From: an uncultured Clostridia bacterium
GTDB taxonomy: Bacteria > Bacillota > Clostridia > Christensenellales > Borkfalkiaceae
Reading direction: 5' to 3'
Assembly (NCBI GenBank): GCA_905235815.1
Contig: CAJOMT010000003.1
Location: 190 to 64,189 of the forward strand
Length of the DNA: 64,000 nucleotides
Shown here: in pieces, positions 30,216 through 59,089 of the stretch
Position numbering within the stretch: position 1 is the first letter of the stretch
Layout: the number at the start of each line of letters is the position of its first letter
The notes under the pieces: model-generated
What the model saw: the letters and a program-made list of their open reading frames with translations, nothing else
Databases searched by the model: none
What the model was told of the DNA's origin: nothing
Translations under genes and position numbers: made by a program

Positions 30216-30244
30216 TTGACAATTTGCAGTCTTTTTATTATAAT
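30216..30244 (+). promoter_or_regulatory. Perfect consensus sigma-A promoter TTGACA-17-TATAAT
   Basis: TTGACA at 30216-30221, 17-nt spacer, TATAAT at 30239-30244. Confidence 0.8.
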
Positions 30245-30287
30245 ATTATAGTTTAATAGTATAATAAGGCGAATATCGGTTTTCGGG

Positions 30288-30330
30288 AAGAACAAGCTTG
30301 TTCTTTCGGCGTTTTTGCAAAAACGCCGAA
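30288..30330 (+). promoter_or_regulatory. Two abutting perfect palindromes in the 5' leader (hairpins or operators)
   Basis: AAGAACAAGCTTGTTCTT (30288-30305) and TTCGGCGTTTTTGCAAAAACGCCGAA (30305-30330). Confidence 0.6.
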
Positions 30331-30365
30331 TACCTAAATGCCGATAAGAGGACGTTTGATATTTT

Positions 30366-56700: not shown

Positions 56701-59032
56701 CAACGGCGGCGCAGATGTTAGTGGCAATATAACCGTTTATGGCAAAGGCGAAACTACCGTGATAGGTAATCCGAAACTTGCAGGTCAAAAGTTTGCCGGT
56801 TGGTTCACTTCTGAAACCTTTGATGAAGGCACAGAATGGGTTAGCGGCGAAGCAATTTATGCTGACGTTGAAATCTTCGCTAAGTGGGTAGAGGCTCCGG
56901 CTTACTATCATACTTACGGCAACGTTCAGGTTTACGAAACTACCGGACTCGGTGGGGTTTCGTCAAAATACAGTTACAGTAGTGACGGCGCAATACTTGA
57001 TGTCAGTGCCGAAGGTACGGCTACCGCTACGGCATATCCGTTCAGGGGAGATGTAACCGTTTATTATACTGACGAAGACGCAGGACAACTTATTATAAAG
57101 GTTGGCTCATCGTCATACTATAAAGGGTATATTGACAAACCTACCGGTTTGATCGTAATGGCTTACAGTTCAAGTACTTCCGAAAGCGATGCTTTAGCGG
57201 CTCAGATTGGTCAAGTAACGTTACTTTCTCCATTTGAAACCGGAAGTTTAACGTCGCATATCTCGTCCTCATATTGGAATGGCGGAAATACGAGAGCTAT
57301 CGAGTATACTTATAATGATCATGTTTACGGTATATTAGTTCATGAAGGCGCAGTCTACTTCAACGTGGCGTTTGTTGATGAAAACGGTGATGCAATACCG
57401 GCGATAGATTGCTATGATGGTGATAAAGCCCCGTATATCAACGTTGTCGACGCAGGCGGAGAGAGTATTGTAGAACTCTATCATCTCCGCTTCGAGGTTA
57501 CGATAAACTATGGCGATAATAGTGGTTTAGAATCTAAGACATTCAACGCTCAAGACGGTGAGGTTTTGCAGGAAAGTGTTTACAAACCGTCAGGTTTAAA
57601 CACAGAAGGCAAAGCGTTTGCATATTGGTATCTCGACGACAGTAGTGTCGAATATGATTTTTCAACTCCTATTACTGGCGCATTAACAATTAATGCTGCG
57701 TGGAAAGACGCTGCCGCTCAATTCGGTGATTGGAAAGGTTGGAACTTCTATGGTTCAAATGCGGGTACAGCTTCACTTAGTGATAGCTATGCGTTCTCTG
57801 TGAACGCAGACGGCGTTATTTATCAAGGTATCGGAAGTAAGTTTAAAGATTATCATATTATAAATACCGAACTTCTCGACGGACCGGTAAATATTGCGAG
57901 CGGCTCTACTACGTACTATATGTATTACAATCAAGAAGCCGGTGTATTGTGGTCGCAATATAGTGGTAATTCTACGGGTGTTGGAACCGATACTGCGTTG
58001 TTCTTCTTACAATCCAATTTTAAATCTGCAACGTATGCAGGTAAGATTTGGAACAGTCATTACTTTGGTTTTGTAAATATCGTTTACAAAGATGACAGTA
58101 GTAAGACGATAATGTGTTATAACGATCGTATTTACGTTGTTACGTTCTTGACTGATGCTCGTGACAAGGAACTTACACTTTATAACGCTGACGGCACGAA
58201 GGTTTTCGCAGTCAAGAATGGTAGTACGATATTGTTTAACGACGGCCTTGGAGGTACATATACAAGCGGCGACGATCAACTTGTTGTAGACGGTTTTGGC
58301 ATAATGACTTTAAACGACGATGATTTTAATTACAATAAGTGTGGCGATAACGTTATCTCTTATGTTGTCGAAGGAATATATCACGAAATAGTTCTTAACG
58401 GCGATACTTTTGAGGACGAAGTTGCAAATTGTACGGTAAGTTTTAATCTCGGCGATGTCGAGGGTTCTGTGGATCCGATAATTGCGAATAAGACTTCCTC
58501 AATAGTTTTGCCGGGCGCGGACGGCGGAGATTTGATTTTCTCCGGTTGGTATGAAGACGAAGATTTGACGATTTTTGCAGGCGCTGATGGGGCTTCTTAT
58601 ACGGTAAACTCTGATATAGTCTTATATGCTAAGTGGTCCACGGAAGCATACGCTATTGCTACGAGCAGTCGGTATCCTTGGACTTATAATGAAGAAAATG
58701 CAGAATGGACTTGCGGTAATCACAATGTTCATTCTTCTGAGTCAACCATAACCATTACTGCCTATACGGCTATTACCATTACGTTCGATTATGCTTGTGA
58801 TTCCGAGAATGCAGAGAAATGGGATTATTTCTCAATTACATTAAACAATTCAGAGCTATTGAAAGCCGGTGGTAAGGTCGGTGCATTGAATTATAAAGAT
58901 TATTCGGTGACATTGGCTGCTGGGGACAAATTAGTTCTTAAATACCAGAAAGATAGTTCTACCAATAGTGATTTGGATATTGCTAAGATTAAAAACTTTA
59001 AAATCAACGGACAATTGATTGTCGAGATTTAA
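53720..59032 (+). CDS. Giant lipoprotein (1770 aa): Big_2 domain, four copies of the novel module alternating with five Listeria-Bacteroides-type repeats, C-terminal jelly-roll-like domain
   Basis: Lipobox LMASC. Big_2-like VATVDEDGVVKGLAVGTANITITA. LB-type repeats end in EGYEFVGWYAD...VYAKY, YVFRGWYAD...IYGKF, QKFAGWFTS...IFAKW, KAFAYWYLD...INAAW, LIFSGWYED...LYAKW. Confidence 0.85.
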   Translation: MKLKKSAIVMLIAIFSLATVLMASCGTVEQIMPPDHSITIEAPDPIAHNKTVALVPAIDGLEDVEFNFSSDNEDVATVDEDGVVKGLAVGTANITITATVLGVRTEELSATVKVTVTHSYGEYEYVTVPDFEHDGVASRVCEYDGDIEYATVPDLNDESWTVSAEKSIAPTYLDNGTDVYVHDEFPDVEISTDTVAMPAYVGQHYTITTLYESGNMDLYRMNDFIVSEMAANFDCTAEMIADDSRVVDCFGSGAAFHDHSAEDGSFTISYVGKDYTAYIDAATGIIVEVESKNHYVNIAFPTTRDNGASTDYLSSKRREGDYAFGVFNGGKDYFVEFKFDNDGVISIYANEELVVFGAELKADGEDIHVADLADNNFVDVLFDGKYLANYGRKDGNLISLDGLEGEYASHLEVIDEQYDAYTVALDGIGGICIFDDGELKYKGTYELTENADYIADVYLANGTTYLRLVSFDNGTVNLVYPYASLILELNGGEVVGSSTFNVNINVPAEIETPTKEGYEFVGWYADENFETLIGNKITVEEAGANVHVYAKYLPKVTLTVYFAVDEGNEEPRVYEHGQIAVIETYDLYNELVRVTGYKENYYDSELYYAFDAFAYGDSDKIAEGDFAVTSDMEAITVAWTFAPPYVGSFYGTEVWSASSGNSGKSTLTIAKSGSISGLVTGYVYRYDAASQKIYWTKNKDDETPKGYFFFDADSGIIAGVYSSMDKDIGYDAYVLSRNNTDTNYKFAAAYGVYGPAVGDMSANYLAHFFTVPTPDGGTEEVLVYVNHIYSGITIKDTAGNEYNTSTIKNAKTLLVYDKDGNIVYTAATSANTFNAGNGSSYYLILDLYFGTYTSDGGKDIILDGVGGISYDGKNGTYALSDGEDDTFDVYLNNRTEYYQLTIGDNHTYTAMEKVMVNLAFDTNAAVTNVNVEAVSANKNISIDLPSVEDTSDYVFRGWYADAEFETKLENAYVPTENATIYGKFLERVDITVNYNGGADVSGNITVYGKGETTVIGNPKLAGQKFAGWFTSETFDEGTEWVSGEAIYADVEIFAKWVEAPAYYHTYGNVQVYETTGLGGVSSKYSYSSDGAILDVSAEGTATATAYPFRGDVTVYYTDEDAGQLIIKVGSSSYYKGYIDKPTGLIVMAYSSSTSESDALAAQIGQVTLLSPFETGSLTSHISSSYWNGGNTRAIEYTYNDHVYGILVHEGAVYFNVAFVDENGDAIPAIDCYDGDKAPYINVVDAGGESIVELYHLRFEVTINYGDNSGLESKTFNAQDGEVLQESVYKPSGLNTEGKAFAYWYLDDSSVEYDFSTPITGALTINAAWKDAAAQFGDWKGWNFYGSNAGTASLSDSYAFSVNADGVIYQGIGSKFKDYHIINTELLDGPVNIASGSTTYYMYYNQEAGVLWSQYSGNSTGVGTDTALFFLQSNFKSATYAGKIWNSHYFGFVNIVYKDDSSKTIMCYNDRIYVVTFLTDARDKELTLYNADGTKVFAVKNGSTILFNDGLGGTYTSGDDQLVVDGFGIMTLNDDDFNYNKCGDNVISYVVEGIYHEIVLNGDTFEDEVANCTVSFNLGDVEGSVDPIIANKTSSIVLPGADGGDLIFSGWYEDEDLTIFAGADGASYTVNSDIVLYAKWSTEAYAIATSSRYPWTYNEENAEWTCGNHNVHSSESTITITAYTAITITFDYACDSENAEKWDYFSITLNNSELLKAGGKVGALNYKDYSVTLAAGDKLVLKYQKDSSTNSDLDIAKIKNFKINGQLIVEI

Positions 59033-59050
59033 TATTTTAGCAATCTATTA

Positions 59051-59089
59051 AAAAAATAAGGCATAGGCTAAGCCTGTGCCTTATTTTTT
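59051..59089 (+). terminator. Strong intrinsic terminator (A-tract / stem / T-tract)
   Basis: AAAAAAATAAGGCATAGGC-TAA-GCCTGTGCCTTATTTTTT. Confidence 0.9.

Follow-up and report, generated by a model that had tools for sequence, protein, structure and literature searches.

In lactic acid bacteria a cell-envelope proteinase feeds Opp, a precedent for our reading of the operon described here. The PrtP/lactocepin system with its maturase PrtM and Opp (PMC2827410, PMC10535647) is the closest known kind. The virulence proteases ScpA/ScpB and SpyCEP/CspA (~1100-1650 aa) are anchored to the wall by LPXTG and act on narrow substrates, and the known surface proteins with BspA-type leucine-rich repeats (LRR) are stand-alone adhesins. 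In Treponema denticola, the dentilisin operon prcB-prcA-prtP encodes an acylated subtilisin-family protease together with lineage-restricted accessory lipoproteins; nutrient acquisition and host interaction are both stated roles of dentilisin (PMC8167434). The PUL/utilisomes of Bacteroidota combine surface-lipoprotein binding, enzyme cleavage and transporter uptake in one locus (PMC7618045).

Gene organization and boundaries

Thirteen genes of the window (the whole 64-kb stretch of DNA that was analyzed) form a 29-kb block with an operon-like layout (Table 1). They all lie on the + strand, as claimed in an earlier sequence-only reading, and include four overlapping gene pairs. The intergenic gaps start at -14 nt, also as claimed, but extend to +87 nt (between g12 and g13) and not to +66 nt. 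The perfect promoter named in that reading was confirmed: it is the sole 12/12 site within 29.5-60.5 kb and the only exact TTGACA-17-TATAAT in the 64-kb window, with none found in any of 100 shuffles. No CodY box was found near it. The 5′ leader gave no match in an Rfam search, and no conservation of the leader was found in L085 and L086, the two relatives examined.

Terminators of the canonical type (hairpin plus T-run) are present at both block ends only. The upstream one was detected by a terminator scan (30102-30127 plus T-run), which overlooked the downstream hairpin with its 1-nt loop. Both had been described as the only strong terminators bracketing the block, but strong internal hairpins without T-runs also flank g12, and given these two hairpins the expression of the 3′ genes may differ.

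Table 1. Coordinates of the genes and regulatory features of the 29-kb block (positions within the window).
Feature	Position	Strand	Basis
Upstream boundary: intrinsic terminator of preceding GH106-like gene	30102..30133	+	9-pair stem, 5 GC pairs, then TTTTTTGTTGT
Sigma-70-type promoter, TTGACA-17-TATAAT	30216..30244	+	12/12 match
Structured 5′ leader, two hairpins	30245..30365	+	MFE -31 kcal/mol
g01, 374-aa lipoprotein, one Flg_new (Listeria-Bacteroides) repeat	30366..31490	+	Lipobox AAGC; Flg_new E 6e-7
g02, 882-aa lipoprotein, family-5 (Opp/Dpp/Nik-type) substrate-binding protein (SBP), ~180-aa helical insert	31503..34151	+	SBP_bac_5 E 1e-23
g03, OppB-type permease, 444 aa, extra ~110-aa loop after TM1	34197..35531	+	BPD_transp_1 E 2e-33
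g04, OppC-type permease	35528..36601	+	OppC_N and BPD_transp_1; 4-nt overlap with g03
g05, OppD-type ATPase	36618..37781	+	ABC_tran and oligo_HPY; median 82% identity in relatives
g06, OppF-type ATPase	37778..38839	+	ABC_tran and oligo_HPY; median 75% identity, 65 loci
g07, 78-aa basic protein, one C-terminal TM segment	38826..39061	+	TM window at residue 47; 14-nt overlap with oppF
g08, 2457-aa (270 kDa) lipoprotein, S8 protease	39092..46465	+	Lipobox AVSC; Pfam
g09, 192-aa lipoprotein	46462..47040	+	Lipobox ITGC; 4-nt overlap with g08
g10, 775-aa lipoprotein	47054..49381	+	Fn3-like and Big_2-like, two LolA/LprG-like half-barrels, C-terminal α/β domain
g11, 847-aa lipoprotein, g10 paralogue	49448..51991	+	blastp g10 vs g11 E 5e-6
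Strong intergenic hairpin without T-run, upstream of g12	51998..52032	+	16-nt arms, 94% complementary; folded gap MFE -28.7 kcal/mol
g12, 528-aa near-orphan lipoprotein, long acidic S/T/G/E stalk	52046..53632	+	LDGxG module common to g12 and g13
Strong intergenic hairpin without T-run, downstream of g12	53639..53684	+	20-nt arms, 85% complementary; folded gap MFE -23.1 kcal/mol
g13, 1770-aa lipoprotein	53720..59032	+	Big_2, three LDGxG beta-rich modules, Flg_new, C-terminal domain
Downstream boundary: intrinsic terminator	59051..59089	+	19-nt arms, 95% complementary, then T6; MFE -25 kcal/mol

Eight of the 13 products have a signal peptide followed by a lipobox Cys (AAGC, LTGC, AVSC, ITGC, LFAC, FAAC, AASC, MASC), and all eight motifs are exactly those listed before. 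These lipoproteins contain no LPXTG motif or C-terminal TM segment, and domain searches of the operon products detected no S-layer, SLH or self-assembly domains, in agreement with the earlier absence claim for LPXTG, SLH and C-terminal TM. Lipoboxes reappear in the corresponding slots of relatives, and the lipobox Cys20 of g10 is invariant among its homologues. The stalk ascribed to four lipoproteins is present in g10, g11 and g12, where S/G/E/T/D/N residues make up 0.63-0.83 of the first 40, but not in g13 (0.375).

Importer genes

The operon encodes a complete Opp cassette (Pfam). A PDB search at the sequence level gave no match for the SBP g02, and its AF2 model (pLDDT 71, with helices spanning residues ~182-364) matched AppA, NikZ, OppA and DppA in Foldseek (E 1e-12 to 1e-10). 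The matches to peptide-binding AppA, OppA and DppA among the family-5 proteins point to a peptide as the possible ligand, with the limit that Foldseek on this model cannot separate ligand classes: EppA and NikZ scores equal that of AppA. Ligands of family-5 SBPs also include nickel, sugars (chitobiose, sialic acid) and opines. The large size of g02 (~880 aa) is a family-wide trait, with 860-913 aa in at least 120 homologues (57-63% identity). OppB has 320-335 aa in L085 and L086, the two relatives examined, so its length of 444 aa may be particular to the source genome.

The small TM protein g07 has no match in Pfam or NCBIfam. The lipoprotein g01 was ruled out as a family-less protein, since it carries Flg_new. 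It also shows a Pectate_lyase_5 match below the Pfam threshold, and its homologues (383-393 aa, at the equivalent position in L085 and L086) have sub-threshold likeness to an ‘adhesive’ pectate-lyase-like domain and to the N-terminal region of IgA1-protease M26. The C-terminal domain of g01 is possibly a beta-helix of the ‘adhesive’ type.

Protease and accessory lipoproteins

Pfam searches of g08 revealed an S8 domain with an inserted PA domain, Fn3-like (fn3_5) and Big_2 domains, and ~1000 aa of BspA-type LRR with nine LRR_5 stretches (E 6e-125), whereas its C-terminal tail has no family match. Residues ~185-882 gave PDB sequence matches to C5a peptidase, SpyCEP and cell-envelope proteinase (E 4e-61 to 1e-53), and the LRR region matched the BspA-type LRR proteins 6mlx (TpLRR), 4fs7 and 4gt6. 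These results agree with the previous assignment of the S8, PA and Fn3-like domains to the cell-envelope-proteinase/C5a-peptidase class. The Asp/His/Ser triad (D225/H297/S630) is invariant in 68 of 68 distinct homologues, which speaks for a functional enzyme rather than an adhesin alone. No PrtM/PrsA-like maturase was found among the operon products (Pfam).

The five lipoproteins downstream of the protease had been labelled family-less. For g13 this proved wrong, as Pfam found Big_2 and five Flg_new stretches (E 7e-33), one of them mapped directly after the first LDGxG module. Its LDGxG motif occurs at residues 423, 860 and 1521, in three copies of a beta-rich module without known family. The label also fails for g10, which has an Ig-type domain. 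Domain searches found no family for g09, and g12 is a near-orphan. None of the uncharacterized lipoproteins matched an unrelated well-characterized family.

The paralogues g10 and g11 are composed of Ig domains and two LolA/LprG-like half-barrels. Foldseek searches with the AF2 model of g10 (pLDDT 83) retrieved LprG, LprF and LolA with prob 1.0, at target-normalized TM of 0.36-0.47 and rmsd of 8-9 Å; these are weak matches for the putative LolA-like assignment. At least 197 homologue clusters were found for g10, and g11 follows it in 77 of 84 loci (~33% identity). The fast-evolving g09 gave a tblastn match in 23 loci (~28% identity), and among ten displayed loci, eight have an ORF of 179-201 aa at its position. 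For g12 there are two matches among 5.8 billion proteins and eight in an exhaustive search, the best distant one of which lies in the C-terminal region of a 1462-aa protein; its slot in relatives is occupied by a 1150-1590-aa lipoprotein.

Conservation and genomic context

A g10 relative is encoded in 95 species-level genomes, and g10 relatives were found in this gene context only. The order OppD-OppF-small TM protein-S8/LRR protease-g10-g11 is collinear in 80 loci, wherever the contig reaches, and OppD, OppF and g07 are present in all 69 loci with flanks reaching them. Per-gene presence in 84 loci, collinear throughout, was 80 for g08, 84 for g10, 77 for g11 and 47 for the Flg_new protein in the g13 position; the four loci without a g08 match are short or truncated by a contig end. 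In L085 and L086, the segment from g01 through the SBP, OppBCDF and the small protein to the S8 protease is conserved, and each g01 homologue is preceded by a strong promoter-like site. The expected co-conservation of the downstream lipoproteins with protease and transporter was thus observed for g10 and g11, in part for the Flg_new protein, but not for g12. Sequence identity falls from OppD (82%) through OppF (75%), SBP (~60%), protease (51%), g10 (45%), g11 (33%) and g13 (29%) to g09 (28%), the pattern expected for rising surface exposure. These comparisons support the view that the block behaves as a single conserved unit.

The window represents core chromosome (SecY, RpoA, HolB) with uniform GC, so the operon is not an island. 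Further Flg_new and LRR_5 proteins are encoded elsewhere in the window. The block is best explained as a chromosomal operon that has been conserved vertically in an uncultured clade of gut Clostridia with small genomes. The hosts of this clade include human, chicken, goat, sheep, deer and rabbit, and among the relatives is Ca. Fimimonas, of family CAG-314 (GTDB Christensenellales). The genome of a relative is ~1.4 Mb (PMC8035907), and at this size the 29-kb operon is about 2% of the genome.

Proposed function and alternatives

The most likely reading, to which we give about even chances, is that of a lipid-anchored extracellular proteolysis and peptide-uptake system, for which we infer protein capture, cleavage and peptide import. 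Acylation at the lipobox Cys would keep each of the eight secreted products on the outside of the cytoplasmic membrane, with some of them carried by flexible acidic stalks. The 270-kDa S8 protease would grip protein substrates via its BspA-type LRR and Ig-like domains and then cleave them. The accessory lipoproteins (g01, g09, g10/g11, the slot-12 protein and g13) have binding- or scaffold-type modules only (Ig, Flg_new beta-grasp repeats, LolA-like half-barrels). Their role is probably to capture substrate, or else to place the protease or help it mature. Released peptides would be gathered by the enlarged SBP and imported by OppBCDF, possibly aided by g07. The lack of a CodY box near the promoter and of a PrtM/PrsA-like maturase among the operon products speaks against this reading. 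Glycoprotein harvesting, proposed previously, is unsupported because the operon encodes no glycosidase.

Alternatively, but rather unlikely in our view, the operon may be a module for adhesion and host or partner interaction. In this case, the cell would bind mucus, epithelium or another microbe through its LRR, Ig and Flg_new lipoproteins and use the C5a-peptidase-like protease to cut host or competitor proteins (e.g. immune factors, IgA, mucins), and the Opp genes would lie here for an independent purpose such as sensing or salvage. Among solved structures, C5a peptidase and the chemokine protease SpyCEP are nearest to the protease; ScpA and SpyCEP cleave host factors in virulence, not nutrition, and the modules LRR_5 (BspA type), Big_2 and Flg_new are typical of adhesins, all of which counts against a nutritional role. 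The surface proteins evolve fast (28-51% identity vs 75-82% for the ATPases), the g01 homologues show the ‘adhesive’ and M26 likeness described above, and CAG-314 is named once among the taxa whose share of the inner mucus layer increased when mice were treated with emulsifier, which is a lead only (PMC11776472). However, the opp linkage is without exception (69/69 loci) and stop/start overlaps run into the protease part, so an unrelated importer is hard to explain; moreover, no host-specific motif was found, and the clade is spread over many hosts.

The invariant importer link is also left unexplained by a structural surface coat, in which large acidic lipoproteins would form an envelope layer processed or matured by the protease, as in dentilisin PrtP-PrcA. 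The ~6800 aa of acidic lipoproteins (g08-g13, pI 4.2-4.6) in one unit, the 4-nt overlap of g09 with the protease gene, the other Flg_new and LRR_5 proteins in the window and the PrtP-dependent cleavage of the accessory lipoprotein PrcA (PMC8167434) are in line with a coat, but the domain searches gave no sign of S-layer, SLH or self-assembly domains and adhesin repeats with long stalks are rare in coat proteins, which makes it improbable. Peptide signalling, with the S8 protease maturing secreted pro-peptides and Opp re-importing them as in Gram-positive quorum-sensing circuits, is very improbable. Opp systems of Firmicutes do import signalling peptides and one operon holds both components here, but no RRNPP-type receptor or regulator and no pro-peptide gene were found in or beside the operon (window and relatives), and a 270-kDa LRR-bearing enzyme with ~4000 aa of accessory lipoproteins is out of scale. 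Finally, surface-protein genes and an opp operon could simply be adjacent on the leading strand without forming a functional unit. Same-strand adjacency is weak evidence, as every large ORF of the window is on the + strand, and promoter-like and terminator-like counts within the block are the same as in shuffles. This reading is already disfavoured and has hardly any probability left, given that order and adjacency are retained at 35-51% protein identity in 80 species-level genomes, four gene pairs overlap and g10 relatives keep to this context.

Comparison with known systems

A literature search found no published description of such a system. ScpA/ScpB and SpyCEP/CspA (PDB 7edd, 1xf1, 5xya, 6vjb) give the best sequence matches to residues ~185-882 of g08 and share its S8-PA-Fn3 core, but these enzymes are without the LRR region, lipobox and linked importer. 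The LRR_5 stretches of g08 are shared with BspA-type surface proteins (PDB 6mlx TpLRR, 4fs7, 4gt6), with the difference that here they are fused to an S8 protease. As in the dentilisin operon, an acylated subtilisin-family protease is encoded with lineage-restricted accessory lipoproteins, and the sizes of PrcB (23 kDa) and PrcA (70 kDa) recall g09 (21 kDa) and g10 (87 kDa), a resemblance which is organizational only. However, dentilisin is a diderm outer-membrane complex, its gene order differs and its operon has no importer. The locus likewise follows the one-locus logic of PULs, and the earlier comparison with them holds as an analogy, not as membership: a SusC/SusD-type pair and an outer membrane are both missing, uptake is by an ABC importer, and the substrate is presumably protein.

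The PrtP system shares with the operon a surface multi-domain S8 protease with inserted PA and Fn3-like domains, an Opp-type ABC importer with a lipoprotein SBP, and the proposed logic of cleaving outside and importing oligopeptides. In contrast to that system, protease and importer here belong to one conserved operon, which has neither a PrsA-like PrtM nor a CodY box; g08 is anchored by a lipobox, not by LPXTG or a wall-spanning domain, and bears ~1000 aa of BspA-type LRR; the SBP has ~880 aa with a helical insert; and the operon adds five to six further large lipoproteins. We regard the operon as a variant of the cell-envelope proteinase plus Opp system.

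Organization of the operon

The block at 30216-59089 comprises 13 genes (g01-g13, numbered 5' to 3'), every one of them on the + strand, with intergenic distances of -14 to +87 nt and four overlapping gene pairs. The sequence-only reading had put the largest gap at +66 nt, which proved too small, but its description of the block borders was confirmed. The perfect TTGACA-17-TATAAT promoter is the sole exact match in the 64-kb window and occurred in 0 of 100 shuffles, and the block is bracketed by two terminators with the canonical hairpin-plus-T-run structure. The eight lipoboxes on its list were all found as stated, and neither an LPXTG motif nor a C-terminal TM segment is present in any of the eight lipoproteins, whereas the S/G/E/T-rich stalk claimed for g13 is absent.

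Features of the operon block and of its surroundings in the window
Feature	Position	Strand	Description
Flg_new protein	15333-18230	+	965 aa, outside the operon
LRR_5 protein	24185-24871	+	228 aa, outside the operon
GH106-like gene	27253-30096	+	947 aa, immediately upstream
Terminator	30102-30133		Hairpin plus T-run
Promoter	30216-30244		TTGACA-17-TATAAT
5' leader	30245-30365		Nested hairpins
g01	30366-31490	+	Lipoprotein, 374 aa, one Flg_new repeat
g02	31503-34151	+	Family-5 substrate-binding lipoprotein (SBP), 882 aa
g03-g06	34197-38839	+	OppB, OppC, OppD, OppF
g07	38826-39061	+	Basic protein, 78 aa, single C-terminal TM segment
g08	39092-46465	+	Lipoprotein, 2457 aa; Peptidase_S8 with inserted PA, fn3_5, Big_2, nine LRR_5 stretches
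g09	46462-47040	+	Lipoprotein, 192 aa
g10	47054-49381	+	Lipoprotein, 775 aa
g11	49448-51991	+	Lipoprotein, 847 aa
Hairpin	51998-52032		Strong, no T-run
g12	52046-53632	+	Lipoprotein, 528 aa
Hairpin	53639-53684		Strong, no T-run
g13	53720-59032	+	Lipoprotein, 1770 aa; Big_2, five Flg_new stretches
Terminator	59051-59089		Hairpin plus T-run
SigG-like ORF	59162-59464	+	100 aa

The 5' leader folds into nested hairpins (-31 kcal/mol), one of which is terminator-like. It has no Rfam match at E<=1 and shows no conservation between the window and L085 and L086, the two related loci whose upstream half was checked. Rfam returned nothing over the whole window at the gathering threshold, and a tRNA scan found no tRNA. 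No CodY box, the site of nitrogen control over opp and proteinase genes in the lactic acid bacteria, was matched near the promoter (30100-30370), the window total being 8 against 7.2 expected by chance. The two hairpins on either side of g12 are the strongest internal ones of the block, and they could act as partial terminators, stabilise the mRNA or be scars left by the replacement of a cassette.

Protease g08

The g08 protein matches Peptidase_S8 in Pfam (E 3e-37), and its catalytic triad (D225, H297, S630) lies within canonical motifs. The triad is unchanged in 68 of 68 distinct homologues, and the enzyme therefore appears to have been kept active. The PA domain (residues 493-569) is placed between His297 and Ser630 and is followed by the Fn3-like domain fn3_5 (723-842), an arrangement shared with the cell-envelope proteinase/C5a-peptidase class. 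In a sequence search of the PDB, residues ~185-882 matched C5a peptidase, SpyCEP and cell-envelope proteinases (E 4e-61 to 1e-53). The wall attachment of this class, through an LPXTG sortase signal or an anchor of the wall-spanning or S-layer type, is missing from g08, which carries an N-terminal lipobox (AVSC) and has no LPXTG motif or C-terminal TM segment. Thus, g08 represents a predicted lipoprotein variant of the class. Domain scans revealed no catalytic domain in products other than g08, either in the window or in the relatives.

Opp importer and substrate-binding protein g02

The Opp cassette is complete, with two permeases of the BPD_transp_1 family, one of them also carrying OppC_N, and two ATPases containing the oligo_HPY C-terminal region, and by domain content the predicted importer is of the Opp/Dpp type (peptide/opine/nickel family). 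The permease OppB (34197-35531) has ~110 additional aa after TM1 (residues ~45-165) with no family match; its homologues in L085 and L086 have 320-335 aa and are without this segment.

The SBP g02 belongs to SBP_bac_5 (E 1e-23) and has the lipobox LTGC, but scores 87 bits against the NCBIfam model Opp4A (cut-off 650), which places it outside that equivalog. A sequence search of the PDB with g02 gave no match. Its AlphaFold model (pLDDT 71) retrieved binding proteins of family 5 (E 1e-12 to 1e-10), including AppA, OppA, DppA, NikZ and EppA, with a Foldseek probability of 1.0 for the first four. In the model, helices inserted between about residues 180 and 365 account for most of the extra mass of g02. 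Ligands of the structural neighbours range over peptides, nickel, EDTA, chitobiose and sialic acid, and the fold does not discriminate among them.

Accessory lipoproteins and g07

The lipoproteins g10 and g11 are paralogues. In an AF2 model (pLDDT 83), g10 contains an Fn3-like and a Big_2-like domain, a pair of beta half-barrels and, at the C-terminus, an alpha/beta domain. The half-barrels are similar to LprG, LprF and LolA with a Foldseek probability of 1.0, although the fit is weak (target-normalised TM 0.36-0.47, rmsd 8-9 A). Proteins of the LolA/LprG type have an unclosed half-barrel in which an internal helix makes a hydrophobic cavity. The likeness of g10 and g11 to them has no sequence-level match, and the only match of the g10 profile in the PDB was an Ig domain.

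In the relatives, the position held by g12 (slot 12) is usually occupied by a larger lipoprotein of 1150-1590 aa, as against 528 aa here. A homologue search with g12 in 5.8 billion proteins returned two matches, including one close homologue, and an exhaustive search gave eight weak matches, the best distant one covering the C-terminal region of a protein of 1462 aa. A short LDGxG-containing module is common to g12 and g13; it occurs in three copies in g13, the first of which is immediately followed by the Flg_new stretch at residues 488-551.

No family was detected for g09 and g07 in Pfam or NCBIfam, and the unknown lipoproteins gave nothing above the cut-off in NCBIfam. The label "family-less", applied to these lipoproteins in the sequence-only reading, holds for g09 but not for g13, and g01 is not family-less either. 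Pfam searches with the slot-11, slot-12, g09 and g07 proteins of the relatives returned Big_3 and Flg_new only. New conserved families are defined by g07, g09, g10/g11 and the slot-12 proteins.

Conservation of the locus in related genomes

At least 197 clusters of g10 homologues were found (43-74% identity), all from uncultured gut bacteria and with no family annotation beyond the Ig domain. A g10 profile was built from 27 homologues, and relatives were found in 95 species-level genomes. We fetched 80 loci with flanks of up to 10 kb and added four by exact look-up, and these 84 loci were searched by tblastn using the 13 window proteins as queries. Matches to g10 were present in 84 of 84 loci, to g08 in 80, to g11 in 77 and to a g13-like Flg_new protein in 47, while OppD, OppF and g07 were present in 69, which are all of the loci with a flank reaching that far. 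The four loci lacking a g08 match lie on contigs 2.7-4.2 kb long, or else the match sits at the very start of the contig. Gene order was identical in all loci compared, and gene calls on four metagenome contigs gave the same order at 45-49% identity. The upstream half is also kept in L085 and L086, both of which encode a g01-like protein, an SBP of ~880 aa, OppB, OppC, OppD, OppF, a small protein and an S8-LRR protease, with a strong promoter-like site 5' of the g01 homologue.

The earlier proposal that the downstream lipoproteins belong with the protease and the transporter was therefore borne out by collinear co-occurrence across the 84 loci, g12 being the exception. Protease, lipoproteins and importer are strictly linked across ~35-50% protein identity, and the locus constitutes a conserved functional unit. 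Median identity to the relatives is 82% for OppD, 75% for OppF, 51% for the protease, 45% for g10, 33% for g11, 29% for g13 and 28% for g09; the SBP shows ~60%, a value taken from top matches (57-63%) and not a median. This gradient would fit a growing surface exposure of the predicted products.

In L086, a second S8-LRR protease of 2492 aa (1-8547 of that locus) stands directly 5' of the g01-SBP-Opp genes, with a slot-12-type protein of 1436 aa before it and a 223-aa ORF after it; part of this locus has therefore been tandemly duplicated.

Genome setting and lineage

The genes for SecY, RpoA and HolB upstream in the window place the operon in the core chromosome. The GC content is uniform (~0.42) across the block and its flanks, and together with the core-gene neighbours this rules out a genomic-island origin. 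All plausible genes of at least 150 aa in the window (1-64000) are on the + strand, a very strong gene-strand bias, and every 2-kb bin has a positive GC skew. The window lies on the leading strand.

The gene immediately upstream encodes a region resembling GH106 alpha-L-rhamnosidases (Pfam E 3.5e-9) and is separated from the operon by the terminator at 30102. In L085, the neighbour at this place is instead a divergent 782-aa M28 peptidase. With further surface-type proteins bearing Flg_new or LRR_5 encoded outside the operon, these modules seem abundant in the genome as a whole. Downstream, a short ORF resembles the first ~100 residues of the sporulation sigma factor SigG (E 5e-37, model length 258) and has no continuation in any frame up to 59925; judged by its sequence, it looks like the remnant of a lost sporulation programme.

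The loci come from samples whose names span human, chicken, goat, sheep, deer and rabbit gut. One of them (L039) belongs to Candidatus Fimimonas merdipullorum. In a passage of Gilroy et al. (PMC8035907), this genus is placed in the GTDB order Christensenellales, family CAG-314, with 1.4 Mbp for one genome described, whereas NCBI taxonomy lists it under Myxococcaceae. The window probably belongs to this broad clade as well. The labels of other locus-bearing MAGs are inconsistent and include Mollicutes, Bacilli, Staphylococcus sp. CAG:324, Coprobacillus sp. CAG:698, Christensenella sp., Bacteroides, Acidiphilium and Butyrivibrio. Public names for the clade are unreliable.

Proposed function

Gene content, predicted anchoring, the invariant triad, the operon-like layout and the strict protease-lipoprotein-importer linkage are directly established, and from here we infer acylation, co-transcription, complex formation, substrate and physiological role. 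The best available reading, which we favour with moderate confidence, is a lipid-anchored system of extracellular proteolysis and peptide import. The protease g08 would bind and cut proteins at the membrane surface, and the accessory lipoproteins, which have binding- or scaffold-type modules only, would capture the substrate or else position or mature the enzyme. The enlarged SBP would then gather the peptides, and OppBCDF would take them in. In a bolder and rather doubtful version, all 13 products would come together in a monoderm as a single multi-lipoprotein assembly, a membrane-tethered "protein utilisome", in which capture lipoproteins on long stalks (g10/g11, slot 12, g13 and g01) pass proteins, which may include mucins or secretory IgA, to a lipid-anchored protease of 270 kDa docked by the enlarged Opp receptor. 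An uncultured gut clade with ~1.4-Mb genomes would feed mainly by this device, which would include at least four families without described relatives.

The protease has relatives of the virulence type and the repeats are of the adhesin type, as expected for a module of adhesion or host-factor cleavage, but the coupling to Opp is invariant, and we regard such a role as somewhat unlikely. A structural coat on the cell surface, with the protease as its processing enzyme, would account for the many lipoproteins and is quite improbable beside the same linked importer, and the maturation and import of a signalling peptide, for which protease and importer could both serve, is very improbable. Mere adjacency of the genes has the least credit, being close to negligible given their strict linkage.

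The clade occurs widely in the guts of humans and animals, has no cultured member and has hardly been studied; literature on CAG-314, the family of the one placed relative, is sparse, and the reports that we looked at name the taxon only. In a relative whose genome is ~1.4 Mb, the operon would take up ~2% of it and is therefore probably central to the life of these bacteria. If the proteolysis and import model is true, protein- or peptide-rich media would be a hint for cultivation, and the locus would be the protein counterpart of glycan utilisation loci and the first in a monoderm to have protease, binding lipoproteins and importer fixed together. If adhesion or the cleavage of immune factors is true, it would serve a common commensal as a colonisation factor. 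The conserved new families offer targets for structural and biochemical work.

Comparison with known systems

A literature search for a system of this composition found no description of the locus. The likeness to a Bacteroidetes PUL proposed in the sequence-only reading stands as an analogy (PUL/utilisome, PMC7618045), but the pairing of a SusC-like TonB-dependent transporter with a lipoprotein like SusD is absent from the 13 products. In dentilisin of Treponema denticola, an acylated subtilisin shares one operon with the lipoproteins PrcB (23 kDa) and PrcA (70 kDa), both restricted to the lineage, and PrcB reportedly has no homologues outside oral Treponema (PMC8167434). The operon resembles dentilisin in organization alone, as a predicted lipobox protease with accessory lipoproteins, and in contrast to it has a linked importer.

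Functionally nearest is the PrtP-PrtM-Opp system of lactic acid bacteria, in which a cell-envelope proteinase is combined with Opp (PMC2827410, PMC10535647). The operon has no PrtM, the PrsA-like maturase lipoprotein encoded beside the proteinase gene in that system; a rotamase/PrsA domain was found in none of the 13 products, and the lipoprotein adjoining the protease, g09, is without a family. Unlike the lactic-acid-bacteria system, the operon is a single conserved unit with a much larger SBP, five to six large additional lipoproteins, and an enzyme that bears a BspA-type LRR region and is a lipoprotein instead of being wall-anchored.
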